Below, one piece after another: positions 2,954 to 44,054 of a DNA stretch of 64,000 nt. Each line of letters begins with the position of its first letter. The first letter of the stretch is position 1. Position numbers and translations under genes: made by a program. The stretch covers positions 4,163 through 68,162 of the forward strand of contig JAAELT010000366.1 in the NCBI GenBank assembly GCA_024226315.1, in the 5' to 3' direction. The notes under the pieces were generated by a model. The model saw only the letters and a program-made list of their open reading frames with translations. It was not told the origin of the DNA and did not search any database. Source of the DNA: a bacterium. Its GTDB lineage: Bacteria > Acidobacteriota > Thermoanaerobaculia > Multivoradales > J023.

Positions 2954-2972
2954 GTATAGGCGCTGCCCTGCA

Positions 2973-5769: not shown

Positions 5770-6363
5770 ATGGGACCCTCTACCCTACGCCTGATCCAAG
5801 GCAGCCACCCGGAGGTGAAGCTCGGTCCGCTGAAGGTGGTGGTCGCTTCACGAGAGCTGCCGCCGTTCGCGGTTCAGGCGGTGGTCGAAGAGGAAGATAC
5901 CTACCTGGTGCTGAGCGCCGCCCCGCAGGTGCGACCACCAAGGCAGCCCCTGATCCAGGTTCTGACCGAGGTACATGAGGCGGAACCCATCGTTCCTGGC
6001 AGCGTGGTCGTCCGCCACAGGCAGCCCCTCGCGCTCCTGGCCGTGGTGCATGACCTGGCGCGGGACCCCACCTGGAAGGAGACCTGGATCGCCGAGGCCC
6101 TCGACGGGGTGCTCCGAGAGGCGGAACAGAGGCGGCTCCGGTCGCTGGCTGTTCCAGTCCTGGGCACAGTCCACGGCAGGCTACCGTTGAGCAGGGGCCT
6201 CGAGCTGATCCGCCACGCTGTCAGGCGATCTGCACCGGAGTGCCTTGAACGGCTCTGGCTGGTAGTGCCGGAGCACACGTTGGGTTCGGTTGCGTCGGGG
6301 TTGAGGTTGGCGGAAGCGAGCGAGGATCTACCGGCCGAGCCACTCGAGCACCCGCCGCGGTAG
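5770..6363 (+). CDS. Macro-domain-like protein
   Basis: PGSVVV, ALDGVLREAEQRRLRSLAVPVLGT..G match the macrodomain C-terminal pattern; the N-terminal NAAN motif is absent. Confidence 0.65.
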   Translation: MGPSTLRLIQGSHPEVKLGPLKVVVASRELPPFAVQAVVEEEDTYLVLSAAPQVRPPRQPLIQVLTEVHEAEPIVPGSVVVRHRQPLALLAVVHDLARDPTWKETWIAEALDGVLREAEQRRLRSLAVPVLGTVHGRLPLSRGLELIRHAVRRSAPECLERLWLVVPEHTLGSVASGLRLAEASEDLPAEPLEHPPR

Positions 6364-8642: not shown

Positions 8643-9248
8643 TTACCACTCCAGATCCCTCACCCCGGCCACATGCTCCCCGGCGCCAAGACCCCGGAGG
8701 TACTCGTCCGTCGTCGCCAGATTTCGATGCCCGAGCTGCCGCTGAATGTGCGGCAGCGCGACGCCCCTCCTCAGCAGATGCACGGCATGGCTGTGACGAA
8801 GACCATGGGGATGGATGCGCTTCTCGAGCGGACTCCGGTCTGCCAGCCGGTGGAGCATGAGCTGGACGTACCTCGGCGCCAGAGCCTTGACGCGGGGCTC
8901 ACCGCCCACCTTCGAGAACGTGCAGAAGACCGGCTGCCGGCCGTTGATCCCGAGACGCTCGCGCGTATCCATCCAGCGGGAAAGGTGAGCCTGAGCATGC
9001 ACGTTGATGCCGACGAGTCGCTGGCGGCCGCCTTTGCCACAGCGGACGTTGATCTCGCCCGCCTCGAGGTCGACGTCGCGGGGCGCGAGCGCCAGCGACT
9101 CGGCCAGGCGGATGCCTGAGAAATACAAGACGGCGATGAGCGCCCGGTTTCTGATTCCGCTGGGGGCACGGCTGCTGGCGGTGGCGATCAGCGTCTGGAC
9201 TTCATTGGGCGAGAGGATGTCGATGGGGCGGAGTCGTGGGCGGGGCAT
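8643..9248 (-). CDS. Short tyrosine recombinase (catalytic domain only, FimB/FimE-like size)
   Basis: SGIRLAE (R), GKGG (K), HPHGLRH (HxxR), LGH, TTDEY (Y); 201 aa, with no core-binding or arm-binding N-terminal domain. Confidence 0.93.
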   Translation of the reverse strand: MPRPRLRPIDILSPNEVQTLIATASSRAPSGIRNRALIAVLYFSGIRLAESLALAPRDVDLEAGEINVRCGKGGRQRLVGINVHAQAHLSRWMDTRERLGINGRQPVFCTFSKVGGEPRVKALAPRYVQLMLHRLADRSPLEKRIHPHGLRHSHAVHLLRRGVALPHIQRQLGHRNLATTDEYLRGLGAGEHVAGVRDLEW

Positions 9249-10313: not shown

Positions 10314-10811
10314 CTACGAAGCGTCCTCCTGGCCTGCGAGAAACGCCACCGTGGATTCTGAAGCAGAAGCACCGAAGGGGGCATAGAGCTCGACCGGGAT
10401 CCCGAGCCGCCCGAGGTGGCGATACAGCAGCGGACCCACCTCGCGCCACCGGAGCTGGCCGTAGCCGCAGCCGAGAGCCGGGACGGCGAGCGATTGCAGA
10501 CCCCAGTCCTCGCAGTGCGCCTCCAGGGCCTCGAGGCCGGCGACGATGTCGGCAAGCCGGGAGGCGTGGCGCCAGTGGCCCTTGGTGGGGAAGTTGAGGA
10601 TCCAAGGCAGCCGCGAGGACTCGAAGACGTACGGCTCGCCGAGACGGACTTCGCGCCTCAGGCATCGCGCCCGGTAGTCCTCGAACATGCCGGGAAACCG
10701 CCGCTTGAACTCGAGCGCGATCCCCTTGCCCATGACGCCCACGCAGTTGACGGCGTTGACGAGCGTCTGCGCGTTCGAATCGAAGAGATTGCCACTTCGC
10801 AGCTTGATCAT
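10314..10811 (-). CDS. Stand-alone DarG-like macrodomain (ADP-ribosyl glycohydrolase)
   Basis: GNLF..AQTLVNAVNCVGVMGKGIALEFK..FP, ILNFPTKGHWR..S, SLAVPALGCG.G.L.W; AGGAGG RBS before ATG 10811. Confidence 0.9.
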   Translation of the reverse strand: MIKLRSGNLFDSNAQTLVNAVNCVGVMGKGIALEFKRRFPGMFEDYRARCLRREVRLGEPYVFESSRLPWILNFPTKGHWRHASRLADIVAGLEALEAHCEDWGLQSLAVPALGCGYGQLRWREVGPLLYRHLGRLGIPVELYAPFGASASESTVAFLAGQEDAS

Positions 10812-10859
10812 GAGTGCCTCCTGATGAGCTCGGATGATCGGCGTGATCGCCCAGGAATG

Positions 10860-10878
10860 AGGGATCCGCAGGATGCCT
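10860..10878 (-). repeat. Leading-region repeat copy 3 (core only, one mismatch)
   Basis: agggatcc-gca-ggatgcct about 50 bp upstream of the macrodomain start. Confidence 0.8.
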
Positions 10879-10893
10879 CTCGCAGCTCGAAGC

Positions 10894-11085
10894 TCACGAC
10901 GCCACCTCGGGAGAAAGCTCCGCGAAGATCTCGTCTTCGCGCCGGCACTCGCCCGGAGTGCAGCCAGCGTCCTCGCAGTCGCCACAGATCGCCCCAGCCG
11001 GTCCGATGGCGATCTCCGGACAGTGCTCACAACAGCACGTCCGGTAGGCCACCACGTCAGGGCTGAGCAGGTATTCAGTGCTCAT
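10894..11085 (-). CDS. Small acidic Cys-rich hypothetical protein
   Basis: 63 aa, CCCEHC..CGDC..C..C; start coupled to the upstream stop (ATGA) with a GAGGTGG RBS. Confidence 0.65.
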   Translation of the reverse strand: MSTEYLLSPDVVAYRTCCCEHCPEIAIGPAGAICGDCEDAGCTPGECRREDEIFAELSPEVAS

Positions 11086-12614: not shown

Positions 12615-12866
12615 TCACGCAGCTCCCGCGTGGGCGCGGCTCAGCTTGGCATGAAGCGCATCAGGAGCCAGGTCGGCGCCGTTGGGCCAGCAGATCGCGC
12701 CGAACTCGTCGATCGCCACCTGGGAGAACAGATCCTCGTCCTTCAAAGGCTCGAAGACCGGACCGAAGAGGCGATCCTCGAGATTGACCTCGCCGCGGAC
12801 GCCGCCTGAAAACTCGACCCGGAGGCTGTAGTGGGGAAGCGGCTCGACTCGGGTGGCCCTGGCCAT
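12615..12866 (-). CDS. DUF2442 protein
   Basis: VEPLPHYSLRVEFS.G..G.V, FEPLKD..LF..V, ICWPNGADLAPD.L. Confidence 0.85.
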   Translation of the reverse strand: MARATRVEPLPHYSLRVEFSGGVRGEVNLEDRLFGPVFEPLKDEDLFSQVAIDEFGAICWPNGADLAPDALHAKLSRAHAGAA

Positions 12867-12876
12867 TCGCGTGCGA

Positions 12877-13113
12877 TCAGAGGCGATCCCGCTCCTCGGG
12901 CTCCACATCTGGCGCCTTCGCCAAGACGGCTAGGAGCTTCTCGCGGCTGCCGCGCTCGGCCCGTTCCTGAAGGTAGTCGACGGTCTTGAGCGTGGCGACC
13001 TTCTCGGCAACGGCCGTCGCAATGAACTGGTCCATCGAGACGCCCTCCTGGGTGGCGACGGCGGCCGCCTGCTCGCGGAGTGACTCGGAAAGATGGACGC
13101 TTACTTTGCTCAT
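12877..13113 (-). CDS. Ribbon-helix-helix (HicB-like) antitoxin
   Basis: VSVHLSESLREQAAAVATQEGVSMDQFIATAVAEK; overlaps the PIN gene stop. Confidence 0.85.
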   Translation of the reverse strand: MSKVSVHLSESLREQAAAVATQEGVSMDQFIATAVAEKVATLKTVDYLQERAERGSREKLLAVLAKAPDVEPEERDRL

Positions 13114-13544
13114 GGGATGACTCCTATCTCTTGGAGGAGCTTCTTGGGTGTGACGACGGCGATTCCGAACTTCTCCGATCCTCCGAAGTCTTTCCGATTG
13201 TACGTCACGATGTGGCTGCACTGCGCCTTGACGGCCAATTCCAGGATGAGCTCGTCCTTGGGATCCCGGAGGTACGGTCGCCAGAGGAAGAAGATCTCGT
13301 GTTGTGAGGCGAGAGCGCACAGAGCGTCGACCAAGTCACCCACGTCCTCAGGAGTCAGACCGATTTGCTCGTGCTGCCGCAGTAGGACATCTTCGTACTC
13401 GAGCACGAGGGGGACCGAGATGTGGACCTCGAAGAGGCCCGTGCCGGCGAGGGAAACGAGCTTCGATGCAGCGCCGCGCTGGGAGCGCTGCGCCGAGACG
13501 AAAACGTTGGTGTCTATGACGATCTGAGGTGGTGAATTTGGCAT
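13110..13544 (-). CDS. PIN-domain (VapC-like) toxin
   Basis: IVIDTNV, EYE.VL, LRDPKDELILELA, IVTYN.KDF. Confidence 0.93.
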   Translation of the reverse strand: MPNSPPQIVIDTNVFVSAQRSQRGAASKLVSLAGTGLFEVHISVPLVLEYEDVLLRQHEQIGLTPEDVGDLVDALCALASQHEIFFLWRPYLRDPKDELILELAVKAQCSHIVTYNRKDFGGSEKFGIAVVTPKKLLQEIGVIP

Positions 13545-13607
13545 CGGCCTTCCGTCGCCGAGCAGTGTAGCTCAGGATCTGCCTGAGCTCTGAGTGTCCC
13601 CGTTCGA

Positions 13608-13818
13608 GATCCAAGGGATCCGCAGGATCCCTTCACATCGACCGGTCTCCACTCCTCCGGCGACCACCGCCACCTGGCGCTCGTCGATCACCGCCGGGCG
13701 TCCTCGCCCCGCCCGGCGCTCGCCTAGCGTCAGGGATCAAAGCGGAACACCCGCAGGGAACGTAGCGAGCGAGGAGATGAAGCGGCGAGCCCGACCCCGC
13801 GCCAGCGGGGGACGCCCA
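13608..13818 (-). repeat. Leading-region repeat copy 5 (full), upstream of the PIN TA operon
   Basis: Core at 13614-13632; same middle and distal blocks as copies 1 and 4. Confidence 0.9.
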
Positions 13819-13869
13819 GAGATTCCGCCTCCTCCCCGCCGCCCAAGCCCTCCAACCAGGAGAGCAAAG

Positions 13870-14166
13870 CTAGTTGACGTCGAGCGGTTCCACCGTTCCG
13901 TCGCTCCGTAGCAAGAAGTTTCCTGACCGCCCTTTGACCTCGATCTCCGGTAAGCAGTTGCAGACTCCCGTCTCGGCCATGAGAGCGCACCATTCAGGGT
14001 GCCAGGACATCACGACCGTGATTTCCTCATCCTTGAGTAGCTCAGAGTCGATCGCGTCCAACAGAAGCCACTTGTCGTGTCCGATGCGTCGCCTGCACTC
14101 CTCATCACTCGGCGCCTCGACCTCGCCCTGCCACCTCGGATCCAGCTCCCACGGCCAGCGCTTCAT
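13870..14166 (-). CDS. Hypothetical protein (H..WC...CNC.P possible metal-binding motif)
   Basis: 98 aa starting MKRWPWELDP; ATG overlaps the stop of the upstream BID-like gene. Confidence 0.7.
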   Translation of the reverse strand: MKRWPWELDPRWQGEVEAPSDEECRRRIGHDKWLLLDAIDSELLKDEEITVVMSWHPEWCALMAETGVCNCLPEIEVKGRSGNFLLRSDGTVEPLDVN

Positions 14167-15497
14167 ACCGCCACACTCCTTCCCGCCGACTCTACCAGCC
14201 TGCGCGCCACCGCCACCGCTGCCAGAGCCCCCTGCATCTGCGGAGGCGTCAAACGCCGCAGAATATGCCCAGGCGCATACTGAAACAGAGCCGCCACCCG
14301 CTGAGCCTCCGCCCGCACCGCCGACTTCGCCAGCGCCCGGGCATCGAGCCCGGCAAACTTCCCCGCCGCCGCCCGCAACGGCTCGAGGAACCGCTGCTCC
14401 GCGTCCCTGAGCTCCTCGACCATCTTCCTCCGGCCCGGCTGCAGCAGCGGCCGTACCTCGTCCAACCCGAGACCCTCCATGTGCCGCCCGAGATCCGCGA
14501 GAAGCCTCTCCCGGCTCGGATACGCCGCCTGCAGCTCGCGATTGCGAGCCTGCAGCCGTTGGAGCCGGCGCGCCCCCTCGAGCTCGCCGAGGATGCTCTC
14601 CCGCCGATCGAGCGCGGTCGAAGCAAGACCTGAGTTGTGCCAGGCCAGATCGAGCGCCCGCTTGCGCTGCGGCGTATTCCCGAGCCAAGGCAGGCGCCGC
14701 CCCCGCAGCTCGCCGAAGGCAGCGGGACCCTCGCCGAAACGCTCGATCGTCGCCCGCCTCCCTTGCCGACGGATGCTCGCCTCGAACGCCTCGATCGCAG
14801 ACCCCGGATCGCGGTAGATCCGATGGATCGACTCGTAGAGCTCGGCCCGCACCTCCGGGATCTTCTCGAGCCTCGCCTGCAGCTCGTAGACGTTGCCGCC
14901 GAATGCCATGTGTTGTCGCAGCCCGACCAGACGGCGACCTTCAGCATCGAGCTGGTCGAGGCGGCGCACCGCGGCGAGATCCTGGCCGAATCGCTGCAAC
15001 TGAGTTGGCCGCGGACCCGTGGCGCGCGTAGCGAGACGCCGGGCGATCTCTGGCAACCGTCGCTCGATCTGATCGAGTTCTGGCGTGGGAGCCGTGAAGA
15101 AGTCCTTGCGGGCCGAGAGCTGCCGCCGGGCAATCGGCATCGCGCTGTCGATGGCCGCCCTGGGATCTGGAGGCTCGAGCTCACGAGCGAGATCGAGGAT
15201 CCTGCGCTCGAGGTGCCGCTCCCGGACGCGGACTGGCTCCGGGGAGTCGGTGAGCTCGAGAGGAAGCTGCGCACGACGGAGCAGCCGCTCGCCGAGCTCG
15301 TTCAGGGTCAGATCGCTCCTCGCGGCGAGGATCGCGGCCTCGGGTGAGTCGGGCCGCAGACGCTCGGCAGTCCTCTGGATCCGCGTCTCGAGTGCCTGAA
15401 GCTGTTCCAGGTTCCCGGTGTGCCACTCGTGAAGATAGCTCTGCTCCAGCAGATCGGTCCGCAGCTGCGCTTCGAGCTCGCTTCGGTCCGCACTCAT
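14163..15497 (-). CDS. BID-like-domain protein 1, homologous to the relaxase C-terminus (putative T4SS substrate)
   Basis: IYRDPGSA...GPAAFGELRGRRLPWLGNTPQRKRA and ILRRLTPPQ align with the relaxase's IYRDPAAA...TPESFGRLNGRRVL..PTRARIEA and LLRRLTPPQ. Confidence 0.8.
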   Translation of the reverse strand: MSADRSELEAQLRTDLLEQSYLHEWHTGNLEQLQALETRIQRTAERLRPDSPEAAILAARSDLTLNELGERLLRRAQLPLELTDSPEPVRVRERHLERRILDLARELEPPDPRAAIDSAMPIARRQLSARKDFFTAPTPELDQIERRLPEIARRLATRATGPRPTQLQRFGQDLAAVRRLDQLDAEGRRLVGLRQHMAFGGNVYELQARLEKIPEVRAELYESIHRIYRDPGSAIEAFEASIRRQGRRATIERFGEGPAAFGELRGRRLPWLGNTPQRKRALDLAWHNSGLASTALDRRESILGELEGARRLQRLQARNRELQAAYPSRERLLADLGRHMEGLGLDEVRPLLQPGRRKMVEELRDAEQRFLEPLRAAAGKFAGLDARALAKSAVRAEAQRVAALFQYAPGHILRRLTPPQMQGALAAVAVARRLVESAGRSVAV

Positions 15498-15507
15498 TCA
15501 CCTGACC

Positions 15508-16872
15508 TCACACCGCCGCACTCCTCGCTACCGACGCCACGGCCCTGCGCGCCACCGCCACCGCCGCCAGAGCCCCCTGCATCTGAGGTGGAGTCAGACG
15601 CCGCAGGATATGCCGCGGCGCGTACGCAGCAGCCGTCCAACTCCTTCCTGCCGAATCAGGCTGAAACAGCGCCGCGACTCTCTGAGCCTCAGCCCGAACC
15701 GCCGGCTCCACCAGCCCCCGGGCATCGAGCTCGGTAAACTTCCCCGCAGCCGCCCGCAACGGCTCGAGAAACCGCCGCTCGGCCTGCCGCAGCTCCCCAA
15801 CAAGCTTCGCTTGGCCCGGCTGCAGCAGCGGCCGCACCTCGTCCATCCCGAGACCTTCCATATGACGCCCGAGATCCGCGAGAAGCCTCTCGCGACTCGG
15901 AAACGCCGCCTGAAGCTTGCGATTTCGAGATTGCCGCCGCTGGAGCCGGCGTGCCGCCGCCAGCTCGGCGTTCATACCCTCCCGGCGCGTGAGCGCCTTC
16001 GAAGCGAAGCCCCAGTTGTGCCAGACCAGATCGAGAGCCCGCTTGCGCTGCGGCGTATTCCCGAGCCAGCCCAGGTGCCGCCCCCGCAGCTCGCCGAAGG
16101 CCCCGGGATTCCCGCCGAAACGCTCGATCGTCGCCCGCCTCCCCTGCCGACGGATGCTCGCCTCGAACGCCTCGATCGCAGACCCCGGATCGCGGTAGAT
16201 CTCATGGACCGACTCGTAGAGCTCGGCCCGCACCTCCGGGATCTTCTCGAGCCTCGCCTGCAGCTCGTAGACGTTGCCAGCGGCGACCAGGTGCTGGCGC
16301 AGCTCCACGAGCCGGCGACCCTTGATGTCGAGAAGCTGGAGGCGACGGAGATCCGAGAGCACCTCGCGGACACGCTCGCGGCGATCCGGCCGTGGCTCGC
16401 GGGCGAGACGCCCGAGGCTGGGCGCGATCTCGTCGAGGCGCTGTGAGACCTCATCGAGGTGCGGAGCCGGTCCGGCAAAGCGCGACCGCTGATCCTCGAT
16501 ATGCCGGTCGGCAACAGGCCTTGCCTCAGCTACAGCCAACCACGGATCTGAAGGCTGGAGCTCGCGCGCGAGATCGAGGATCCTGTTCTCGAGATGCCGC
16601 ACCTGCACCTGCACTACCTCCGGCGCGCGAGCAGCATCCAACGGAAACTCCGTACGCCTGAGAAGACGCACGGCGAGCTCGTCCAGGCTCAGCTCGCGCC
16701 GCGCGGCACGGATCGCAACCTCCGGCGCATCGGGCCGCAACCGCCTGGCCGTCTCCTGGATCCGCGCCTCGAGCTCCTGGAGCCGCTCGACGTTCGCGGA
16801 GACCGACAGCCTGTCCTGGCTCGCGAGATCCCTCAGCAGCTCGATCTCGCGCCGAGCATCGCTGAATCCCAC
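15508..16872 (-). CDS. BID-like-domain protein 2 (paralogue)
   Basis: Full-length similarity to 14163-15497. Start uncertain: GTG 16872 chosen because TTG 16905 lies inside a repeat. Confidence 0.78.
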   Translation of the reverse strand: MGFSDARREIELLRDLASQDRLSVSANVERLQELEARIQETARRLRPDAPEVAIRAARRELSLDELAVRLLRRTEFPLDAARAPEVVQVQVRHLENRILDLARELQPSDPWLAVAEARPVADRHIEDQRSRFAGPAPHLDEVSQRLDEIAPSLGRLAREPRPDRRERVREVLSDLRRLQLLDIKGRRLVELRQHLVAAGNVYELQARLEKIPEVRAELYESVHEIYRDPGSAIEAFEASIRRQGRRATIERFGGNPGAFGELRGRHLGWLGNTPQRKRALDLVWHNWGFASKALTRREGMNAELAAARRLQRRQSRNRKLQAAFPSRERLLADLGRHMEGLGMDEVRPLLQPGQAKLVGELRQAERRFLEPLRAAAGKFTELDARGLVEPAVRAEAQRVAALFQPDSAGRSWTAAAYAPRHILRRLTPPQMQGALAAVAVARRAVASVARSAAV

Positions 16873-16890
16873 GCCGCCCCGCGCTCGGGA

Positions 16891-16985
16891 AGCGTCAGGG
16901 ATCAAAGCGGAACCCCCGCAGGGAGCGTAGCGAGCGAGGAGATGTAGCGGCGAGCCCGACCCCGCGCCAGCGGGGTGACGCCCAA
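16891..16985 (-). repeat. Leading-region repeat copy 6 (distal half)
   Basis: agcgtcagggatcaaagcggaac..cgcaggga.cgtagcgagcgaggagatg.agcggcgagcccgaccccgcgccagcgggg, near-identical to ~13726-13818. Confidence 0.88.
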
Positions 16986-17030
16986 GTCTTCCGAATTCCG
17001 CTCTGCCTCTTCATCCCCGTTCTCCCGCTC

Positions 17031-18383
17031 TCAGCCGCCGCTCACCCTCAGGCTCTTAGAGACCATCCTCTTGCCCACCCTCACAGCAGCCACGACCACC
17101 CCCAACTGCGGAGCACTCATCCGTCTCAAGATATGCCCCGGAGCGCTCTTGAAATGCAGCCTGGCAATCTGAGACGCCATCTCAGACACAGAACCCTTCC
17201 CAGGGCCGACCTGCCTCGCCACCTCGAGCAAGGGCCCGAGCACCTGCTGCTCTTGCGCCCGCAGATCCCGCACCATCTTGATCTCCCGATTCCCCAAAGT
17301 GACCCACAGATCATGCATCTCGAGCCCCTCCATCTCCTGCCCGAGCCGAACCAGAAGCGTTTCCCTGCTCGGAAACGCCTCGCGCAGCTCGCGGCCCTCA
17401 GCCATCCTCTCCATGTACTCCCGCGCCGAGGACAAGTCAGACCCGAACTCCGCCCGCCGCGCCCACTCGCCCCGCAGCACCTCCGCCTTGCTGCGAGCAA
17501 AGAGCCGCGCCCGCTGCCGATCACCCGTCTCCCACCCCAGGACACTACGCCCCCGCAGCTCACCGAACGACTCCGGGTGCGTCTCGATCAACTCAGCCGC
17601 CACCAGGTCCCCCTCCTCGAGCACGTACCCCTCCATCGCCTCGAGAGCCTCCTGAGGCTGACTGAAGATCTGCTCGACGTTCTCCTTCAAGACCTGCTTC
17701 GCGGTCCGCACCCGCTCGAGCTGGCCCCGCAGCTCATAGACGTTGCCTCCGAAGAGCAGCTCGGCCTTCCCTTCAGCACTGAGGCGCGCCTGTTGCTCGA
17801 GCTGCTCGATCCGGCCCAAATCCCTTACCAGCCGAACCACTCGCTGCACCTGCGTCGGCCGTGGTCCCCGAAACCGACTCTCCACCCGCCCGGCCAGGCG
17901 AGGAAGCCGCTCCCTGACCTCAGGCGACACCTCGAGCGTGGGCCGCAAGTCATGCCGCCTCAGCCCCCGTCCCTCAGCGCGCAGCACCACATCTTCAGAA
18001 GCGCTCTGCACCGGCAGCGCCGGATCCCGAGGATCCGCGACTCGTGCCAGATCCATGATCTCCGCCTCCAAGTACCTCGCCCGCGTCATCGCCGCCTCGC
18101 CGCTGTAGTCCGGATCCACCGGAAACCGCGCCCGCTCCACCAGCTTCGGCCCGATCCGATCAAACGCCACCCGAGCCTCGGCTTCGGCGATCGCCTCCTC
18201 AGGAGCCCGCGCCAGCTGGGACGCCATCTCCCGAATCTCCACCTCGAGCTCCGCGACCGCCTCGACGTCGACCACCTCATGATGGGCGTATTCCCGCCGC
18301 GCAACCGCCGTCTCGAGCCTGCGCTCCAGCCGATACCTTTCAATCGGCTCGAGGTTCGCTGCTTCCCGTTCGATCCAGGGCAC
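17031..18383 (-). CDS. BID-like-domain protein 3 (divergent paralogue)
   Basis: GGNVYEL, IFSQPQEA, HPESFGELRGRSVLG..T..RQRA, FPSRE.LL, APGHILRRMSAPQ. Confidence 0.8.
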   Translation of the reverse strand: MPWIEREAANLEPIERYRLERRLETAVARREYAHHEVVDVEAVAELEVEIREMASQLARAPEEAIAEAEARVAFDRIGPKLVERARFPVDPDYSGEAAMTRARYLEAEIMDLARVADPRDPALPVQSASEDVVLRAEGRGLRRHDLRPTLEVSPEVRERLPRLAGRVESRFRGPRPTQVQRVVRLVRDLGRIEQLEQQARLSAEGKAELLFGGNVYELRGQLERVRTAKQVLKENVEQIFSQPQEALEAMEGYVLEEGDLVAAELIETHPESFGELRGRSVLGWETGDRQRARLFARSKAEVLRGEWARRAEFGSDLSSAREYMERMAEGRELREAFPSRETLLVRLGQEMEGLEMHDLWVTLGNREIKMVRDLRAQEQQVLGPLLEVARQVGPGKGSVSEMASQIARLHFKSAPGHILRRMSAPQLGVVVAAVRVGKRMVSKSLRVSGG

Positions 18384-18394
18384 GCCTCAACCCC

Positions 18395-18814
18395 CTAGAG
18401 CGGGATGTCGTCGTCTTCCGGCTCAGGAGCGCCGTCTGAAGCCGGCGCCGCTTCCTCATCGACCTTGGCCGCCAAAGCGTGCTCGGTCGCCGACCCCAGC
18501 ATCTGGAAACCCCGGCAGAAGATCTCGGTGCGATGCCGCCTCTCGCCCGTCTCCCGATCCTCCCAGGAGCGAGTCTGGATCCGCCCCTCGACATAGACCT
18601 GCCGGCCGCGCCTCAAGTACTGCCGCGCAACCTCCGCCTGGCGCCCGAAACACACCACGTTGTGCCACTCGGTCGCCTCCTGCCGGTTGCCGTCGCGGCC
18701 CCGCCACCGGTGATGGGTGGCCAGCGAGAAGCTCGCCACCGGCGTGCCGGTGCTCGTCGAACGCAGCACCGGGTCGCTCCCGAGATTGCCGACCAGAATC
18801 GCCTTGTTGATCAT
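18395..18814 (-). CDS. ssb: Single-stranded DNA-binding protein
   Basis: MINKAILVGNLG.DP, TEWHNVV.FG, G.QVYVEGRIQTRSW, acidic tail DDDIPL; AGGAG RBS. Confidence 0.96.
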   Translation of the reverse strand: MINKAILVGNLGSDPVLRSTSTGTPVASFSLATHHRWRGRDGNRQEATEWHNVVCFGRQAEVARQYLRRGRQVYVEGRIQTRSWEDRETGERRHRTEIFCRGFQMLGSATEHALAAKVDEEAAPASDGAPEPEDDDIPL

Positions 18815-19090
18815 CGCCTCAGCTCCTTTCTCGATCGGTTGTTTGCCACACGCCGGGAAGACCCCGACCTCCCACCGGACACCGCCCGCTCCAACGTCGC
18901 CACTCACCAGGCGCCTGAGCACGAGCCGCCCGATCGGCAGCTCGAGCGCGGCGCCCCAGGTCCCGCAGAGGCCGAGCCAGGTCGCAAACGGCAGCGACGA
19001 GCGCGCCGCTGCCGCACGCCACCGGCGCTCGACCCAACCGGAAACCTCGACGACGATCCGAGCCATGGCGATGCCCCCACAGGCGCACCC

Positions 19091-22000
19091 CTAGGACAGC
19101 CGCCGCTCCCCACGCAGACGCCAGGCGGCGATTCCCCCGAGGACGACCACGAAGATGGCGAGACCCCACGGCGAAAGCACGGGGATGTCGACCACACCCA
19201 AGCCCCCACTGAGCTCGGTCACGGTGGGATCATTCGGCTCCGGGGTGGCAGGATCGTCGGTGAGGACAGTGGGGAAGTGGGGACTCTCGATCCGGCCCTG
19301 GGCCTGCACCTCGCTCAACCCACCTGCCTCCACCACCTCCACCGCGTAGAAGATCAGCATCTCGCCGCGCGGTTCAAGCGAGCTTCTCTCCACCACAAAC
19401 GAACCATCCCCCTCGATCACGTGCGAGCCTTCCGAGGAGGCACTGCCCTCGAGATACCTCGTGTGCGGATCGAGATCGACCGAGTACGTCAATTCAAGCG
19501 CCGCAGCCTTCCCCACGTTGCGGACGGCGACGTCGTACTCGATGACCACACCGTCGACACCGTAGGGCCCGCCGTCGACGATCCAGTCCGTCTTCTCAGC
19601 GACGATCTCCGGCTCACCGACCGGCGGTGGCAGGACCGCCACGATCGGAGTCGTCTCGATGGCGAGATTGTTCGTAGGGTCGAGATCCTCGCCGCCCGAG
19701 CCGTCGTCCAGCACCGACGCGACGTTCTCGAGCTCCCGGCGGTCAATGACGTCCGCTGAGAGCACGAAACCGATCACGAACACCTGCGCCGGCGCGCCCG
19801 CGGCCACGTTGCCCACCGCGAGCGAGCAGGTCGTCTCGCCACACCCCCACTCCGGACCGCTCGCCACCGCGCTGAAGCTCGTCAGGTCCGGAATCACGTC
19901 GTTGATCACGACGCCCGTGGCGTCCTGGTTGCCGGCGTTGGAGACGGCGATCGTGTAGAGCACCAGACCGTCCGGCTTGATCGCCGTCCCGCCATCGTCC
20001 TTGACCACCGTCAGGTCCGGACCGGTGCCGCCTGTGCCTACGCGCAATGGCGTGGCCTCACTCGCGGAGTTGTCCGCCGGATCGAGATCGGCACCGTTGG
20101 CACCGTCGTCGCTCGCGGTGACGGCGTTTGCGATCTCGCGCACGCCTGCTGAGACGGGCGAGTCGACGAGAAACGCGATTTCGAAGCTCGGGGGCGGATC
20201 GCCGACGTCGAGCGCACCGACTGAGAACGTACAGGCGGATCCCGGAACGACCTCGGCACACACCCACCCCGGATCGCTCGCTGAGCTCTCGAATACCACG
20301 TGATCGGGGACGATGTTCTCGAGGACGACACCCGCAGCGCCTCTGTTGCCGACGTTCTCGACGCTCACCGTGTAGGTCACGACCTCACCCGCGCTGGTCA
20401 TGGCGCCGCCATCGTCCAGCGTGCCGACCAGATCGGGCCCTGAGCCCGAGCCCGAGCTGATGGGCGTCGACTCCGTGTCGCTGTTGTCGGCGGGGTCGAG
20501 ATCCGCTCCGCCGGAGCCGTCGTCGGCCACGGTCGCGGTGTTCGAAATCTTGGTGACTCCAGCTGCCAACGGGTCGTTGACCACGAACGTGATGCCGACA
20601 CTGAGCGCCACAGCACCCACATCCACGCCACCAACGCCGAGCGTGCAGGTACCAGCCGTGCAGCTCCAGCCCGGCGTGCTGGCTGGACTGTTGAACGAAG
20701 CGTTCGCCGGGACGGCGTCCGTGATGACCACCCCCGAGGCGTGCTGGTTGCCCACGTTCTCGACCGTGAGCGTGTAGCCCACGCTCTCGCCGGCGCCGAC
20801 GCTGACGCCGGCGTCATCCTTGACGAGGACCAGATCCGGGCCGGTGCCGCCGCCAGGACCTGATGAGATCGGCGTGGTCACGGAGGCGGTGTTGTTCGAC
20901 AGGTCGGGATCCACTCCGCCGGTGCCGTCGTCGGAGGTCGTGGCGGTGTTGAGAATCGCCGTCACTCCCGCCGCCAGAGGTGAGTCGACCGTGACCGCGA
21001 ACTGAATGTCCTGCGGCGAAGATCCCGCCCGCAGCACCGGAATGAAGAACGTGCAGGTCGATCCCGGGCCGCCGTCAGGACAGCTCCAGCCGACGTCGCT
21101 GGCCAGAGTGTCGAAGCGGGTGTGATCCGGCACCACGTCGGTCACCTCCACGCCCGAGGCGTCCTGGTTGCCCAGGTTCTCAACCGACAGCGTGTAGACG
21201 ACGGTGTCACCCGCGTCGGCGGTGACCCCGCCGTCGCTCTTGACCACTGCCAAGTCGGGTGCGGTGCCGCCTCCCGGACCCGTGCCGAGGGGCGTCGAGT
21301 CCGTGGCGGTGTTGTTCGAAAGGTCGGGGTCGACGCCGCCCGAGCCGTCGTCGGAGGCAGAAGCGGTGTTGGTGATATCGCTCACGCCGGCGGCGAGCGG
21401 TGAGTCGACCGTCACCGCGAACTGGACGCTCGGCGCCGAGGTGGCCGCGGCCACGGTGCCGAGGAGTAGCGTGCAGGTCGATCCGGCACCCGTGCCCGCG
21501 CAGCTCCAGCCTGCCTCACTGGCGGCGGCCTCGAAGCGGGTGTTCTGCGGCACGGTCTCGGTCAAGAGGACACCGGAGGCATCCTGGTTGCCCAGGTTCT
21601 GAACCGACAACCTGTAGACGATGGCCTCGCCGGCGTTCGCGGTAATCCCGCCGTCGGTCTTGGAGAGAGCCAGGTCGGGTGCCGTACCGCCTCCCGGACC
21701 CGTGCCGAGGGGCGTTGAGTCCGTGGCGGTGTTGCTCGAGGGGTCGGGGTCGACGCCGCCCGAGCCGTCGTCGGAGGCAGAAGCGGTGTTGGTGATCTCG
21801 GTGACCCCTGCAGCGACGGGCGAGTCTACGTCCACAGCGAAGAGGAAGTTCGAGGGAGCCGCGCCCGCGGCTAGCAGCGGCACGCTCAGCGTGCAGGTCG
21901 AGCCCGCGACCGCACCCGAGCAACTCCAGGCACCGTCGCTCGATACCGCGTTGAACCCCGCGTGCGCGGGCACCGTCTCCGTGACCGTCACGCCCGAAGC

Positions 22001-23776
22001 ATCCTGGTTGCCCAGGTTTTGAAGCGACAGCGTGTAGACGACCGTCTCGCCGGCGTCGACCGTGACGCCACCGTCGGTCTTGGCCAACGCCAGGTCCGGT
22101 GCCGTACCGCCTCCCGGACCCGTGCCGAGCGGCGTCGAGTCCGTGGCGGTGTTGTCGGCGAGGTCGAGGTCGACGCCACCGGTGCCGTCGTCTGAGACCG
22201 TGGCGGTGTTGGTGATCGCGGTGATCCCCGCCCCTACCGGCGAGATCACGTCGAATGCAATCACCGGCTGCTGAGGCGGCGCTCCGGCAGCGACGTCGCC
22301 TACCAGCAGCGTGCAGGTGTCCGCGGCACAGCTCCAGCCTGGGGAGCTCGCGCTAGCTGAGAACCTCGCGTTCGCCGGGACCGTGTCGGTGATGATCACC
22401 CCCGCGGCGTCCTGACTACCCGTGTTCGAGAGCGTCAGCGTGTAGGACACCGATCCGCCGGCATCGGTCGTCACGCCGCCGTCGTCTTTGGACAGCACCA
22501 GGTCAGGTCCCGTGCCCCCGCCGAAGTCGATTGGCGTCACCTCGGACGCCGCGTTGTCCGCGCTTACCAAGTCCGGCCCCACGGTCCCATCGTCGGTGAC
22601 CATCGCGGAGTTGGTGATCGCAGTGACTCCCGCAGCCAGCGGGTCATCGACCCGGAAGCCGATGGTGACGACCCTCGGCGGTTCGACCACCCGCACCGTG
22701 CCCGCCGCCAGCGAGCAGCTACCGCCCGAGCAGCTCCAGCCAGCCGAGCTCATCGAAGGGTCGAAGCTGGTCTCAGCCGGTACCGCGTCTGAGAGCACCA
22801 CGCCGGCCGCATCCTGCGTGCCCACGTTGTCGACGCTCAGCGTGTAGACCACCGTCTGGCCCGCGCCGACGCTTGCTACGCCGTCGTCCTTGGTCAAGCG
22901 CAAATCGACGCCGGTCGCGGGCGAGTCGATCGGCGTCGTGTCGGTAGCGGTGTTGCTCGAGGGATCGAGGTCGGGCTCCGAGGCGCCGTCGTCTGAGACG
23001 ACAACAGTGTTGCTGATCTCGGTCACGCCCGCCGCCAGCGGCAAGTCGACAGCAAAGGCGATGTCGAAGCTCCTCGGCGCATCGAGCACACCGATGAAAC
23101 CCACCGCCAGCGAGCAGCTTCCCGCGGAACACGCCCACCCCGGATCGCTCTCGGCAGAGCTGAAGGTGGTATTCGTTGGCACGACGTCTGAGAGCACCAC
23201 GCCACCCGTGTCCTGGGTTCCCTCGTTCGAGACGGTGATCGTGTAGACGACCACGTCGCCCGCGCCAGCCAACGCGCCGCCGTCGGTCTTGGTGACCACC
23301 AGGTCAGGTCCCGTTTCCGGGCTGAACGGCGTGACGTCGAAGGCGAAGTTGTTCGAGGGATCGAGGTCGAGGCCCGAGGAGCCGTCGTCGCCCACGAGCG
23401 AGATGTTGCGGATCGCCTGAGCCGCCACCGGCAGCGGCGAGTCGACGTCGAAGCCGATCAGGAACGTCTGAGCCGGTGCGCCACCGGCCACGGCCGCGAG
23501 CGACAGGAAGCAGCTCACCAGCGGATTCGAGCAGCTCCAGGCCGGATCGCTCACGGCCGCGTTGAAGGTCACGTTCGCTGGCGCTACATCCCTCAGCAGC
23601 ACGCCGGTCGCGGTGCCGCCGGCGTTTTCCACCGTGATGGCGTAGATCACGGTATCGCCGGGAGTGGCGACCACTCCCCCGTCGTCCTTGGTCACGATCA
23701 GATCGGGCGGTTGCGCTGCGGTGGCTGCGGCGATGAGCAGGCAGAGGAATGTCGAAAGCAGGAATCTTCGGGTCAT
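19091..23776 (-). CDS. Giant DUF11-repeat surface protein with signal peptide and IPTL-CTERM-like sorting signal
   Basis: About ten ~140-aa repeats (PDL...K.DGG..G..V.YT.V.N.G..DA.GV.L.D.VP, W.C...C); C-terminal IPVLSPWGLAIFVVVLGGIAAWRLR. Confidence 0.9.
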   Translation of the reverse strand: MTRRFLLSTFLCLLIAAATAAQPPDLIVTKDDGGVVATPGDTVIYAITVENAGGTATGVLLRDVAPANVTFNAAVSDPAWSCSNPLVSCFLSLAAVAGGAPAQTFLIGFDVDSPLPVAAQAIRNISLVGDDGSSGLDLDPSNNFAFDVTPFSPETGPDLVVTKTDGGALAGAGDVVVYTITVSNEGTQDTGGVVLSDVVPTNTTFSSAESDPGWACSAGSCSLAVGFIGVLDAPRSFDIAFAVDLPLAAGVTEISNTVVVSDDGASEPDLDPSSNTATDTTPIDSPATGVDLRLTKDDGVASVGAGQTVVYTLSVDNVGTQDAAGVVLSDAVPAETSFDPSMSSAGWSCSGGSCSLAAGTVRVVEPPRVVTIGFRVDDPLAAGVTAITNSAMVTDDGTVGPDLVSADNAASEVTPIDFGGGTGPDLVLSKDDGGVTTDAGGSVSYTLTLSNTGSQDAAGVIITDTVPANARFSASASSPGWSCAADTCTLLVGDVAAGAPPQQPVIAFDVISPVGAGITAITNTATVSDDGTGGVDLDLADNTATDSTPLGTGPGGGTAPDLALAKTDGGVTVDAGETVVYTLSLQNLGNQDASGVTVTETVPAHAGFNAVSSDGAWSCSGAVAGSTCTLSVPLLAAGAAPSNFLFAVDVDSPVAAGVTEITNTASASDDGSGGVDPDPSSNTATDSTPLGTGPGGGTAPDLALSKTDGGITANAGEAIVYRLSVQNLGNQDASGVLLTETVPQNTRFEAAASEAGWSCAGTGAGSTCTLLLGTVAAATSAPSVQFAVTVDSPLAAGVSDITNTASASDDGSGGVDPDLSNNTATDSTPLGTGPGGGTAPDLAVVKSDGGVTADAGDTVVYTLSVENLGNQDASGVEVTDVVPDHTRFDTLASDVGWSCPDGGPGSTCTFFIPVLRAGSSPQDIQFAVTVDSPLAAGVTAILNTATTSDDGTGGVDPDLSNNTASVTTPISSGPGGGTGPDLVLVKDDAGVSVGAGESVGYTLTVENVGNQHASGVVITDAVPANASFNSPASTPGWSCTAGTCTLGVGGVDVGAVALSVGITFVVNDPLAAGVTKISNTATVADDGSGGADLDPADNSDTESTPISSGSGSGPDLVGTLDDGGAMTSAGEVVTYTVSVENVGNRGAAGVVLENIVPDHVVFESSASDPGWVCAEVVPGSACTFSVGALDVGDPPPSFEIAFLVDSPVSAGVREIANAVTASDDGANGADLDPADNSASEATPLRVGTGGTGPDLTVVKDDGGTAIKPDGLVLYTIAVSNAGNQDATGVVINDVIPDLTSFSAVASGPEWGCGETTCSLAVGNVAAGAPAQVFVIGFVLSADVIDRRELENVASVLDDGSGGEDLDPTNNLAIETTPIVAVLPPPVGEPEIVAEKTDWIVDGGPYGVDGVVIEYDVAVRNVGKAAALELTYSVDLDPHTRYLEGSASSEGSHVIEGDGSFVVERSSLEPRGEMLIFYAVEVVEAGGLSEVQAQGRIESPHFPTVLTDDPATPEPNDPTVTELSGGLGVVDIPVLSPWGLAIFVVVLGGIAAWRLRGERRLS

Positions 23777-23795: not shown

Positions 23796-24974
23796 TCAGG
23801 AATAGGGCTCGGCGAACGTCAGGTCGCCGGTCAGGAACACGTTGAAAGCGGTACCGGCACGGATCCGCACCGTGGGCGGGATCGAGCCGTTGCGACGCAG
23901 GATCTCGGCGGAGGCTCGTTCGAGCTCGCGCGAGGCGCCGCCGATAGCGAGCTCCCCGGCTGAGAGCCCGAGCTCGTTACCCCCGGGCTGCGCCGCCTCG
24001 AAGCCGGCGCTCAGGAGCGACAGCAGCAGGGCGTTGCCGAAGATCCGCGCGGTGTGGTGGTCGACCCGGTCGTTCAGGCCGCTGCGACCCTGGGCGTCGA
24101 CCGCCGGTAGGTCGGAGACGTCGATCGCGGAACCATCAGGCAGCAGGAAACGGATCCAGACGACCGCAAGGCGGTTCTGGCCGATCTCGAGACCGGAGTC
24201 ATAAGCGCCGACGAGCTTGGTGCCGCGAGGCAGGAGAAGGTGGCGATAGTTGAGCGAGTCGCGGACGTCGCTCGAGATGTGCGCCAGGACCTGGCCGGGG
24301 AGATCGGAGTTGATCTCGGTCAGGAGCTGTGCGCGGATGACCGTCCCCTGCCGGAGCAGGAACGGTCCGGCTGGAGCCTGAAGGCGCGCCTGTCGGTGGT
24401 GCGTCGCAGGAGCCTTGCGGGAGGCGGTCTCCGGCGTGCCGGGCCCGAGCGTCTCCTGGAGCCTCTCGAGCGAACCTGCCGAGAGGGTCGTGGGCGGGTT
24501 TCGAAGCAACTCGCCGAGGGCCCGGTTGTGCTCCTCGAAGTCCGCGAAGACCGAGCTCAGATCCGAGGTCGGCGAGCCGGGAGATCGCCGAGCCAGACCT
24601 GGCGGCTGCCGGCGGCGCGAGTAGGCGATCGGCTCTGAGAAGGCCCGCTTGACGCGGTCTGAGATCTCAGATTCAGGTGGCGGTAGCGTCTCTGGAGGCT
24701 CCGGCCGGCCCAGAAACGGGCCGAGGTCCGGCTCGAAGATCGGCGGTGGCGCGGACTCCGCCTCGGGAAGATCCTCGAGCAGCTCGCGCGGCGGCTGAAG
24801 GCTGCCCGTGTCGATGGCGGGCTCGGGCCGAACGATCGGACCCTCGGAGCTGCGGGTCAGCAAGAAGGTGACGATGCCGAGGGTGAGGACAACGACTGCA
24901 CTCGCCACCACGATGCGTCGCTTGTTGAAGCCGGAGGTCGCAGGGACGGGCCGGGACAGTACCGGACGCTTCAT
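23796..24974 (-). CDS. trbI: T4SS TrbI/VirB10
   Basis: GTVIRAQLLTEINSDLPG, GQNRLAVVW, G.SGLNDRVDHH, IPPTVRIRAG; N-terminal TM and Pro-rich linker. Confidence 0.95.
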   Translation of the reverse strand: MKRPVLSRPVPATSGFNKRRIVVASAVVVLTLGIVTFLLTRSSEGPIVRPEPAIDTGSLQPPRELLEDLPEAESAPPPIFEPDLGPFLGRPEPPETLPPPESEISDRVKRAFSEPIAYSRRRQPPGLARRSPGSPTSDLSSVFADFEEHNRALGELLRNPPTTLSAGSLERLQETLGPGTPETASRKAPATHHRQARLQAPAGPFLLRQGTVIRAQLLTEINSDLPGQVLAHISSDVRDSLNYRHLLLPRGTKLVGAYDSGLEIGQNRLAVVWIRFLLPDGSAIDVSDLPAVDAQGRSGLNDRVDHHTARIFGNALLLSLLSAGFEAAQPGGNELGLSAGELAIGGASRELERASAEILRRNGSIPPTVRIRAGTAFNVFLTGDLTFAEPYS

Positions 24975-25957
24975 TGAAGCGCCTCGTTGATCAGGTGCAG
25001 GCGAGCCTGTCCATCGCCGTGCGGCAGCACCAGCACCAGGTGCTCCGCGACCCTCGGGACGACGAGCAGCGACGGATCGGTGGCCGCGGGAGAGAAGTTG
25101 ACGATCGCGTCCTCACCACCCGTGACCTCGAAGATCGCCGGCAGGTCTCGGGCGCCCTCAGGCAGCTTGATGTAGGTGCGAACGCCGTCGTCGAAGACAG
25201 CCGCCGGCCGCCAGGGAAAGCGCGGTGAGCGCTTGAGAGGATTCCTCGAGCGGTGAGGGCGGACGTTGTAGCGCCAGTTGAGGTCTTCGATGCCGTCAGC
25301 AGCGGCGAGGCGGGTCGGAGCCGGCTTCTTCGAATCTTCGGCCAACGCGTCGGCCTGCAGCGCCCGCAGCTGCGCTCGCGTGGTCCAGCGCCGCAGCAGA
25401 TCGTCGGGGTAGTAGAAGCTCAGCTGGCGGTGGTAGGGACGCTGCGGGTTGGGATCCCTGGCGCCCGAATCCGTGCAGGGCGGTAGCTCCAGGAGGACGT
25501 CGTAGAAGCGCCGGTCGGTGGTGATGACGAGGTTGGTGGTCTTGTTGCAGGTGTCGCCCAGCTCGAAGTCGACCATCGGCCGCACGCCAACGATCGGAGT
25601 CGAGCCGCCGGGCCCAGTGGAGAGCTCGAAGGTCTGCCAGTGCTGAGCGTCCCCGGTCACAACGTCGAGGACGATCTCGCCCTCCTCGAGCACGATCTCG
25701 CAGATCCTCAGCGGCGCGCAGACGAGCGCGGGCTGCCGGTGGCCGAAGGGAAAGCGCTCGACCGTTCCTTCGTAGATGATCTGGGTGGTTGCGGTGTGGC
25801 CGCTGTGGCCGTAGTCGACAGTGGCGTCGCGGACGGAGGAGGAGACGCTCGACTCACCCTCGGCCTCCTCGGTCCAGGTCACAGCACCCTCTACTGGCAC
25901 CGCTGGGATCAGGGGCAGGCAACAGGCGAAGAGCAGAGCGAAACGGCGCGAGGTCAT
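24971..25957 (-). CDS. trbG: T4SS TrbG/VirB9
   Basis: Signal peptide; CAPLRICEIVLEEGE, TNLVITTDRRFY, LNWRY, PAAVFDDGVRTYI. Confidence 0.93.
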   Translation of the reverse strand: MTSRRFALLFACCLPLIPAVPVEGAVTWTEEAEGESSVSSSVRDATVDYGHSGHTATTQIIYEGTVERFPFGHRQPALVCAPLRICEIVLEEGEIVLDVVTGDAQHWQTFELSTGPGGSTPIVGVRPMVDFELGDTCNKTTNLVITTDRRFYDVLLELPPCTDSGARDPNPQRPYHRQLSFYYPDDLLRRWTTRAQLRALQADALAEDSKKPAPTRLAAADGIEDLNWRYNVRPHRSRNPLKRSPRFPWRPAAVFDDGVRTYIKLPEGARDLPAIFEVTGGEDAIVNFSPAATDPSLLVVPRVAEHLVLVLPHGDGQARLHLINEALQ

Positions 25958-26652
25958 CGGGGATCTCCTTCGAGTTGGTCGCTGGTCTTCGACCAGGTGA
26001 GGTTGGTGACGTAGAGCCCGAGCGGGTTCTGGGCGCTGATCGACGCCCGCTTGCGAGCCGGCACGAGCTCGACCTCGAGCACCGCGGTCCACGAGGTCCG
26101 GGAGAGCTGGCGCGCGTGCGCCCGGGTGGTCTCGGTCTCGGTCCACTGGATCTGCCAGGAAGATTCCGACAGCGGCAGGAGCGAGAGGATGTGGACCTCG
26201 CGGTAGACCGAAAGAGCCAGGCGCCGGGGATCGTTCACGGGGTCTGAGAAGTAGCGGTCGAGCGTGGTGCGCACGGGTCGGGTGGCGTGCACCAGGGCGC
26301 GGCTGCGGTTTCGAAAGAGCGCCCGCCGATCGGCGACGACGGTGCGCAGATCGATCAGGAACTCGCTCAGCTCGTGGCGGATGTAGAGCTCGGGATCCTT
26401 GGTCTGGCGCGCCGGGCCGGCGTAGACCGTGCGGCCGAGGGGATCGACCTCGACGACGTGCACCAGCACCCGGCGGTGAGCCGCCTGCTGGACGAGACCG
26501 GCGACGAGAATGGCGATGACCGCCAGCGCGGCATAGAACGCCACCTGCCACGAGCGGGCGGTGTCGGCCAGGCGGATGAAAGGAGCGTCGAAGACGCGGC
26601 CCTGCTCCAGACCAGCGAGCGCGGTCCCGGCCAGCTCGGAGCGCTCGCTCAC
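25954..26652 (-). CDS. trbF: T4SS TrbF/VirB8
   Basis: N-terminal TM, HVVEVD..G, SWQIQWTE, NPLGLYV. Confidence 0.92.
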   Translation of the reverse strand: MSERSELAGTALAGLEQGRVFDAPFIRLADTARSWQVAFYAALAVIAILVAGLVQQAAHRRVLVHVVEVDPLGRTVYAGPARQTKDPELYIRHELSEFLIDLRTVVADRRALFRNRSRALVHATRPVRTTLDRYFSDPVNDPRRLALSVYREVHILSLLPLSESSWQIQWTETETTRAHARQLSRTSWTAVLEVELVPARKRASISAQNPLGLYVTNLTWSKTSDQLEGDPR

Positions 26653-27677: not shown

Positions 27678-27688
27678 GGCCAACCCCC

Positions 27689-28558: not shown

Positions 28559-28580
28559 GCTGGACTCCTCGGTGAACGGT

Positions 28581-28880
28581 TCAAGGTTCGATGACGATCG
28601 GGAACGGGCTGGCCAGCTCGCCGTACCAGGAGGCGACGCTGCGCACGGCAGCGCAGTTGACGGCGGCAGGACACCTCGCGGTGCAGGTGGCGAGCGCCTG
28701 GACCCACAGCTCCGGCTGGCGGGTCCGGAGGTCGTCCCAGTAGAAGTCGAGGTACTCCTCGCGCAGCTGCTCCTGGTCGCAGAGTCGCTCCAGGTGGCGG
28801 CCGGCCTCCGGGTGACCGGTTCCATCGCACGCGACGAGCGCAAACACGAGTAGGTAGTGGAGGAAGCGGTGTGGTCTCAT
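28581..28880 (-). CDS. Small lipoprotein, candidate entry-exclusion protein
   Basis: Lipobox LVA-C; Cys-containing; lies between trbE and trbJ. Function inferred from position only. Confidence 0.65.
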   Translation of the reverse strand: MRPHRFLHYLLVFALVACDGTGHPEAGRHLERLCDQEQLREEYLDFYWDDLRTRQPELWVQALATCTARCPAAVNCAAVRSVASWYGELASPFPIVIEP

Positions 28881-31363: not shown

Positions 31364-31371
31364 GGCCGTGG

Positions 31372-32009: not shown

Positions 32010-32021
32010 CGGAGTTCTCCC

Positions 32022-35917: not shown

Positions 35918-35929
35918 AGTCAAATTGGT

Positions 35930-44043: not shown

Positions 44044-44054
44044 GGAGGAGCACC

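Follow-up and report, generated by a model that had tools for sequence, protein, structure and literature searches.

Introduction

BID-type export signals have been described for alphaproteobacterial relaxases, toxins and Bartonella effectors (PMC6509941, PMC5675462). [quoted passage not shown] Here we describe three tandem genes, P1, P2 and P3, that sit after ssb at the end of the Trb-type T4SS operon of a conjugative element in an apparently acidobacterial genome. The element lies in a 64,000-nucleotide stretch of contig JAAELT010000366.1 (assembly GCA_024226315.1, positions 4,163 to 68,162 of the forward strand), which we call the window and whose first letter is position 1 of the window coordinates used below. 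P1-P3 share the C-terminal module of the element's relaxase, and from sequence comparison we consider the chances about evenly balanced that they are passenger proteins translocated by the T4SS.

VbhT, from pVbh of Bartonella schoenbuchensis, and PezT/Zeta-BID, from rhizobial conjugative plasmids, resemble P1-P3 in being non-relaxase proteins encoded beside a conjugative T4SS and transfer genes. They also resemble them in joining a relaxase-type BID signal to a basic tail, an instance of repeated recruitment of the relaxase signal (PMC5675462, PMC6509941). They differ in carrying FIC or PezT/Zeta toxin domains with antitoxin partners, whereas the N-terminal domain (N-domain) of P1-P3 matches no family, and their hosts are Alphaproteobacteria, whereas the host here is apparently an acidobacterium and the T4SS is Trb-type. 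The BID domain of VbhT is nearly identical to that of its own relaxase; the module of P1-P3, in contrast, is 25-29% identical to that of the element's relaxase and forms an old, separate branch.

TraA-type MOBQ relaxases such as the rhizobial pAtC58-like TraA have the architecture of the window relaxase, with a MobA/VirD2 nuclease, a RecD-like helicase and a BID-like C-terminus; P1-P3 share this C-terminus but lack the nuclease and helicase. Rhizobial TraA relaxases are described as carrying two BID domains (PMC5675462), whereas one BID-like segment is detectable here. Bartonella Beps, like P1-P3, carry a positively charged tail behind a BID-like segment, have expanded by tandem duplication and keep a conserved signal while the payload diversifies (PMC6509941). 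Beps, however, are host-targeted effectors of a pathogen, mostly of FIC-OB-BID organization and exported by VirB/VirD4, whereas P1-P3 belong to a conjugative element of an environmental bacterium, their N-domain is unrelated and their scores stay under the Pfam cut-off. The SSB, PsiB and ParA/B proteins of the F-like plasmid pED208 are, as we propose for P1-P3, element-encoded, non-enzymatic establishment proteins that accompany the DNA and are associated with ssb (PMC8406263), but they have no sequence similarity to anything found here. What sets P1-P3 apart from these known cases is a 280-aa module shared with the relaxase, a fixed pairing with ssb, and a tandem expansion with homogenized signals.

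Results

Three tandem genes share the C-terminal module of the relaxase

P1 (P0001; 14163-15497, 444 aa), P2 (P0002; 15508-16905, 465 aa, TTG start) and P3 (P0003; 17031-18383, 450 aa) are open reading frames (ORFs) on the minus strand, with coding-like third-position GC content (0.79-0.80). P2 is also present in the protein collection as a 454-aa form (P0007) with a computed start 11 codons later. The gaps between P1 and P2 (10 nt) and between P2 and P3 (about 125 nt) hold no small partner gene. P2, a recent tandem copy of P1, is 66% identical to it over 429 aa; the divergent P3, which represents an older subfamily, is 34% identical to P1 over its full length (442 aa). P1 consists of a family-specific N-domain (residues ~1-165), a BID-like segment (217-281), a conserved post-BID region and a basic RRLTPPQ tail. 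A scan of positions 13400-19300 was uninformative as to promoters and terminators, yielding no promoter-like site and one terminator-like site, inside P2, against a chance expectation of 2.0.

The relaxase gene of the element (46319-50191, minus strand) encodes a MOBQ/TraA-like relaxase-helicase in which Pfam recognizes a MobA/VirD2 nuclease (residues 224-342), a RecD/TraA-like AAA_30 helicase (574-762) and, weakly, a BID domain (PF17841, 18.5 bits). Its C-terminal module (residues 994-1278; nt 46358-47212, minus strand) is shared with P1-P3. Residues 999-1257 of the relaxase correspond colinearly to P1 164-422 (29% identity, E 2e-22), and residues 1009-1256 align with P3 189-427 (25% identity, E 2e-12). 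Every motif named for this region recurs in the relaxase/P1 alignment: RIYRDP is found in both, PESFGRLNGRR pairs with PAAFGELRGRR, PDRDELLGSLRRHAAG with PSRERLLADLGRHMEG, LAPLRSA with LEPLRAA, and LLRRLTPPQL with ILRRLTPPQM. In P1-P3 Pfam reports BID (PF17841) alone, below its cut-off; the MobA/VirD2 nuclease profile PF03432, which scores 102 bits in the window relaxase, is not matched in any of the three. These results bear out what a first-pass annotation, made from the letters of the window, had described: three tandem proteins of ~450 aa, free of relaxase and helicase domains, whose last ~280 aa follow the relaxase C-terminus colinearly and with its motifs.

The first ~176 residues of the relaxase ORF (49663-50191, minus strand), rich in Arg, Pro, Gly and Ala, look non-coding. 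Translation probably begins near 49663, at the Met that precedes MIPFNGG, which would give a protein of ~1114 aa, comparable with the 1112 aa of the related relaxase P0047.

A BID-like segment and a net-positive tail

The BID-like segments lie at 14655-14849 in P1 (covering positions 12-79 of the 97 in the PF17841 profile), 16036-16230 in P2 and 17472-17714 in P3, all on the minus strand. The PF17841 scores of the three proteins are 23.1, 25.7 and 24.4 bits, respectively (E 1e-5 to 1e-4), and those from a six-frame search are 26.5-28.8 bits, the highest being that of P3; the curated cut-off is 29.5 bits, and that of the NCBIfam BID profile NF033856 is 45 bits. The profile PF17841 matched 13 of 18 family members at E<=0.01 and none of 14 control genomes. 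The E-values and the proportion of members matched argue, at the level of sequence, for homology to BID.

Searching 1.84 billion representative proteins with a profile of the whole family (A1) returned 226 hits at E<=1e-3, and 19 of these were scanned with Pfam. Eight carry the PF03432 nuclease with the A1 match at the C-terminus, seven have a sub-threshold BID match and four are without any family. Three of the 19 exceed the BID cut-off (P0058, 54.9 bits; P0066, 35.7; P0059, 30.8).

The C-module ends in a net-positive tail made up of RRLTPPQ and an amphipathic stretch. Over the last 30 residues the net charge is +3, +4 and +6 in P1, P2 and P3, +2 to +6 in all 25 family members considered, and +1 to +6 in 10 of 10 relaxase-type modules. 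Where the first-pass annotation had spoken of a BID-like region with a basic tail, the relaxase-type module and its positive tail hold, while the BID scores stay below the curated cut-offs.

A small family with its own N-terminal domain

Eighteen family proteins were found in a collection of 5.8 billion proteins, and the search of representatives brought the number of full-length members to about 25, all 405-465 aa in length. The family to which P1-P3 belong is small and has not been described before; its members are cytoplasmic proteins of ~450 aa that consist of an N-domain of ~165 aa and a relaxase-type C-module of ~280 aa. Within the family the N-domain is conserved (E 1e-18 to 1e-70 in hmmsearch, including members from other samples), and its hidden Markov model detected no relaxase or other non-member among the 172 sequences compared, the best non-family match having E 0.002. 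Isolated N-regions gave no Pfam match better than E 0.06, Pfam on isolated N and C regions together gave nothing better than E 0.014, and NCBIfam found no match covering the N-region in full-length P1-P3.

Invariant positions of the N-region are Ile, Ala, Pro and Arg only, none of a catalytic type, and an enzyme is therefore unlikely; the domain is probably helical. Its isoelectric point (pI) varies from 5.0 to 11.4 across members. In P1-P3 we found neither an N-terminal toxin domain nor a cognate antitoxin gene, the pair that marks toxin-BID proteins.

The family is an old branch with one recent local duplication

An unrooted tree was built from 39 C-modules, leaving out duplicates (P0007, P0026, C634p), fragments (P0023, P0033) and hits covering fewer than 240 model positions. 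A branch with a support of 99 in the Shimodaira-Hasegawa-like approximate likelihood-ratio test (SH-aLRT) sets all 25 family rows apart from every relaxase module. P1 and P2 are sisters (SH-aLRT 100), and at the family's base P3 pairs with P0029, a protein from elsewhere (SH-aLRT 99). The window relaxase falls among other relaxases, being 53% identical to P0047 against 25-29% to P1-P3. Forcing P1, P2, P3 and the relaxase into one clade costs 258 log-likelihood units and is rejected by the approximately unbiased test (p-AU 2.5e-49), and forcing P1, P2 and P3 alone together gives p-AU 0.023, both groups having been chosen after the tree was seen.

The tree and the constraint tests therefore indicate that the module was not copied from the relaxase of this element. 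The first-pass annotation had supposed an independent origin here, by duplication of the element's relaxase signal, and that idea finds no support in a family branch that is separate and older. Because the tree is unrooted, it gives the fusion no direction. On these sequences, the fusion of N-domain and module is old and P3 split early, while P1/P2 is the only recent local tandem duplication in the cluster.

Between P1 and P2 the synonymous divergence (dS) is 0.50 and the ratio of nonsynonymous to synonymous divergence (dN/dS) is 0.45. Codons 210-300, over the BID segment, are 93% identical in nucleotides with a proportion of synonymous differences (pS) of 0.09, against 0.4-0.6 in the N-domain; these two values together indicate a gene-conversion tract over the BID segment. 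The ratio of nonsynonymous to synonymous proportions (pN/pS) is ~0.6-0.7 in N-domain windows and ~0.2-0.4 in post-BID windows. A fast-evolving N-domain and a homogenized BID segment are consistent with a payload that changes while its export signal is conserved.

The family gene follows ssb in three contexts

The start of P3 lies 11 nt past the stop of ssb (18395-19066, minus strand), the gene immediately upstream in the same operon, which carries PF00436 at residues 86-190 (124 bits). An ssb gene followed by a family gene was seen in all three contexts that could be read, with three family copies in the window and one in each of the others. One of the other contexts is a second element of the same genome, on contig C632, in the order NikA, MOBQ relaxase (BID, 31.7 bits), S26 peptidase, TraG, ssb, the family gene P0012, a helix-turn-helix gene and an integrase; P0012 is the second gene past TraG. 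The remaining one, L020, is an independent metagenome contig carrying a DUF11/IPTL-CTERM protein, ssb, a family gene (46% identical) and an exosortase gene.

The ssb product of the window ends in an acidic DDDIPL tip; the acidic C-terminal tip is the usual partner-binding site of single-stranded DNA-binding proteins (SSBs). An extension of ~85 aa precedes the OB fold in this ORF; it is conserved in the ssb of L020 (L020:2743-3393; 54%, tblastx) and absent from that of C632.

Distribution of the family and of the module

The genome that holds the window (10.5 Mb in 726 contigs) has 14 matches to the family profile, among which are broken or partial copies on C305 (with TAG stops), C487 and C200, and it has at least three other relaxase/TraG sets (C632, C265 and C98). 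Its ribosomal protein L2 is most similar, at 79-83% identity, to proteins labelled Acidobacteriota or Thermoanaerobaculia. A search for related loci in metagenome contigs gave one, L020. The corresponding search of genome contigs gave 33 pattern matches, with no relative among them; two genome-contig loci from a scan with the back-translated RRLTPPQMQ pattern were rejected as chance matches because they had no tblastn similarity. The C-module had no tblastn match in 72,556 plasmid records. Two of 40 related genomes matched the family profile, both weakly or with relaxase-type hits, and none of 400 other sampled genomes of the phylum did so at E<=1e-10 (four candidates per genome scored); PF17841 matched one of the 400. 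Two further tandem pairs, P0008/P0009 and P0010/P0022, are likely, judged solely from the equal size of their carrier contigs. A literature search found no paper linking BID domains with Acidobacteria.

The module also occurs in other relaxase settings. Two giant relaxases of 3352-3510 aa (G004:C260, locus L011, and P0048) combine one nuclease and three to four AAA_30 modules with the same C-terminal module. On G000:C468 a single open frame (L017:5400-7127) joins a MOBQ relaxase whose BID score (29.7-33.7 bits) is above the cut-off to the C-terminal part of an IS66 transposase, probably an insertion of the insertion sequence in the relaxase tail. On G000:C634 the gene for a 548-aa protein with two TIR domains (L016:1216-2862) lies directly downstream of a relaxase-type C-module, the frame of which reaches the contig end. 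We considered the short proteins with a relaxase-type module (P0035, P0042, P0044 and P0045) as independent signal-only genes and make no such claim for them; P0042, the C634 frame, is probably a cut relaxase, because its frame runs to the end of the contig.

Other features of the element

The Trb (P-type) T4SS genes (23796-33065, minus strand) encode TrbB/VirB11, the TrbC pilin, TrbE/VirB4, TrbJ, TrbL, a VirB8-like and a VirB9-like protein and TrbI/VirB10. Between trbI and ssb, and thus inside the T4SS operon, lies a gene for a 1561-aa DUF11-repeat surface protein with an IPTL-CTERM-like tail (19091-23776, minus strand), which may be a mating adhesin. The same arrangement is found on L020 (5-2731), the contig that also has the exosortase gene. 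This ORF beside the cluster is not the relaxase; the relaxase is 28 kb away, with a NikA/MobC-like relaxosome accessory gene (50481-50822, minus strand) upstream of it.

In the window element the Trb T4SS looks complete and a relaxase is present, but the S26 TraF-like peptidase and TraG/VirD4, both of which directly follow the relaxase on C632 and C265, are lacking. Between trbB and the relaxase there is instead a plus-strand block of four large genes (33863-45998) with AAA_35, STAND-like and helicase domains: one encodes PNP_UDP_1 and AAA_35 (684 aa), one AAA_35 and an AAA_11/AAA_12 helicase (1602 aa), and two products of 1102 and 714 aa are without family. The block looks like a defence-type island at the site where related elements have traF-traG.

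Downstream of P1 are a PIN gene (13110-13544), a DUF2442 gene (12615-12908), a Macro-domain gene and, at the element end, a tyrosine recombinase (integrase; 8643-9248, minus strand) which the integrase of C632 matches at 86% identity over 205 aa (tblastx). Genes for two STAND proteins of the NB-ARC/TPR type and for two Macro-domain proteins flank the element (365-5741, plus strand; 5770-6363, plus strand; 10314-11030, minus strand).

Discussion

P1-P3 as possible passengers of the conjugation machine

If P1-P3 are translocated passengers, an IncP-type TraG/VirD4 coupling protein would recognize their C-module as it does on the relaxase, and the proteins would be co-transcribed with ssb and exported through the Trb T4SS to the recipient during conjugation, alongside the relaxase-DNA complex. 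In the recipient, the N-domain would then work as a binding domain, not as a catalyst, and would probably help to protect or establish the single strand that comes in, or else counter some function of the recipient. Because VbhT and PezT/Zeta-BID, together with the transfer of SSB and PsiB, provide precedents, we rank this proposal first, ahead of a role as decoys and then as adaptors.

Several observations weigh against translocation or against its BID basis. Neither the window nor the whole contig (C366) holds a coupling protein gene or a remnant of one, tblastn searches included, and export would therefore need TraG supplied in trans from C632, C265 or C98. No protein of the window attains the curated cut-off of either BID profile, and NF033856 matched P3 alone, with 18 bits. 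About 120 aa separate the BID-like segment from the tail; this post-BID region is conserved, matches no family and does not resemble the BID segment. No second BID was found in it, and since hhalign probabilities never exceeded 0.4 when the N, BID and post-BID regions were compared with one another, a second BID is unsupported. The sequence of the N-domain offers no pointer to its target. The full-length profile A1 found no BID chain in the PDB, returning designed coiled coils and weak noise. In favour of BID, a profile restricted to the BID-like region (A4) had as the best of its six PDB hits the Bartonella BID structures 4yk2 (E 2.9e-5) and 4yk3 (1.2e-4), followed by 4yk1 (0.3) and 4nps (0.46), but A4 consists of the three window segments and 22 remote A1 hits hand-picked for short length, which makes this link to BID transitive rather than direct. 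From the sub-threshold and transitive matches taken together, homology of the shared region to BID is likely.

Alternative roles

P1-P3 might instead act in the donor as regulators or decoys, binding the coupling protein without useful transfer and so tuning or blocking their own or co-resident elements by fertility inhibition or competition. We think this unlikely. Such a role would make sense of a whole relaxase docking module on all three proteins, of an element without its own TraG in a genome with several other relaxase/TraG sets and 14 family-profile matches, and of three copies, which would raise the dose. The position of the family gene argues the other way, since a single-copy partner of ssb, placed directly downstream with it of TraG on C632 and again after ssb on L020, is at an odd site for an inhibitor of self-transfer, and a conserved 165-aa N-domain present in none of the relaxases compared would be needless for a pure decoy.

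The tight operon coupling with ssb, seen in three of three contexts, speaks for a second donor-side role, that of relaxosome or single-stranded DNA adaptors. Here SSB, DNA or a relaxosome component would be the ligand of the N-domain, and the C-module would link this cargo to the coupling protein, with passage of P1-P3 themselves optional. The acidic tip of the ssb product would suit such a partner, as would the basic character of the family (full-length pI 9.3-11.3 in 23 of 25 members). P3, however, is acidic overall (pI 6.2), and the Pfam and NCBIfam scans identified no DNA-binding or SSB-binding motif; the data do not separate the adaptor role from true translocation, and we judge it quite improbable.

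That P1-P3 are functionless, decaying fragments of duplicated relaxase genes, which the first-pass annotation had named as one finding that would overturn its view, is suggested by the relaxase-like C-terminal 280 aa and the broken copies elsewhere in the genome but is essentially excluded by intact frames (405-465 aa in all 25 tree members), the conserved family-specific N-domain, dN/dS below 1, monophyly apart from relaxase modules and conserved ssb synteny, all of which mark them as intact, conserved genes.

Implications

Taking passage to the recipient as the preferred account, one can venture a wider and decidedly speculative picture, which we would not expect to hold in full. The family would be a class of non-enzymatic first-wave conjugation passengers outside Alphaproteobacteria, in which a BID-tailed carrier co-expressed with SSB travels on the relaxase route and its N-domain binds and neutralizes a recipient factor or guides SSB to the strand that enters. 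With tandem copies more targets would come into reach, and gene conversion would hold the signals of these copies to a match with a single coupling protein.

The principle of a relaxase tail on another protein is already known; here it appears in another protein family and in an apparently acidobacterial genome. What is new is a payload without a toxin domain, fixed beside ssb in three related elements and present in three copies in one of them. If P1-P3 are not transferred, the family would point to co-resident elements competing at the coupling protein. If they are, the module would amount to a compact and portable tag for export by Trb/TraG systems outside Alphaproteobacteria, and the family a new class of recipient-directed conjugation proteins in which payload and signal evolve at different rates.

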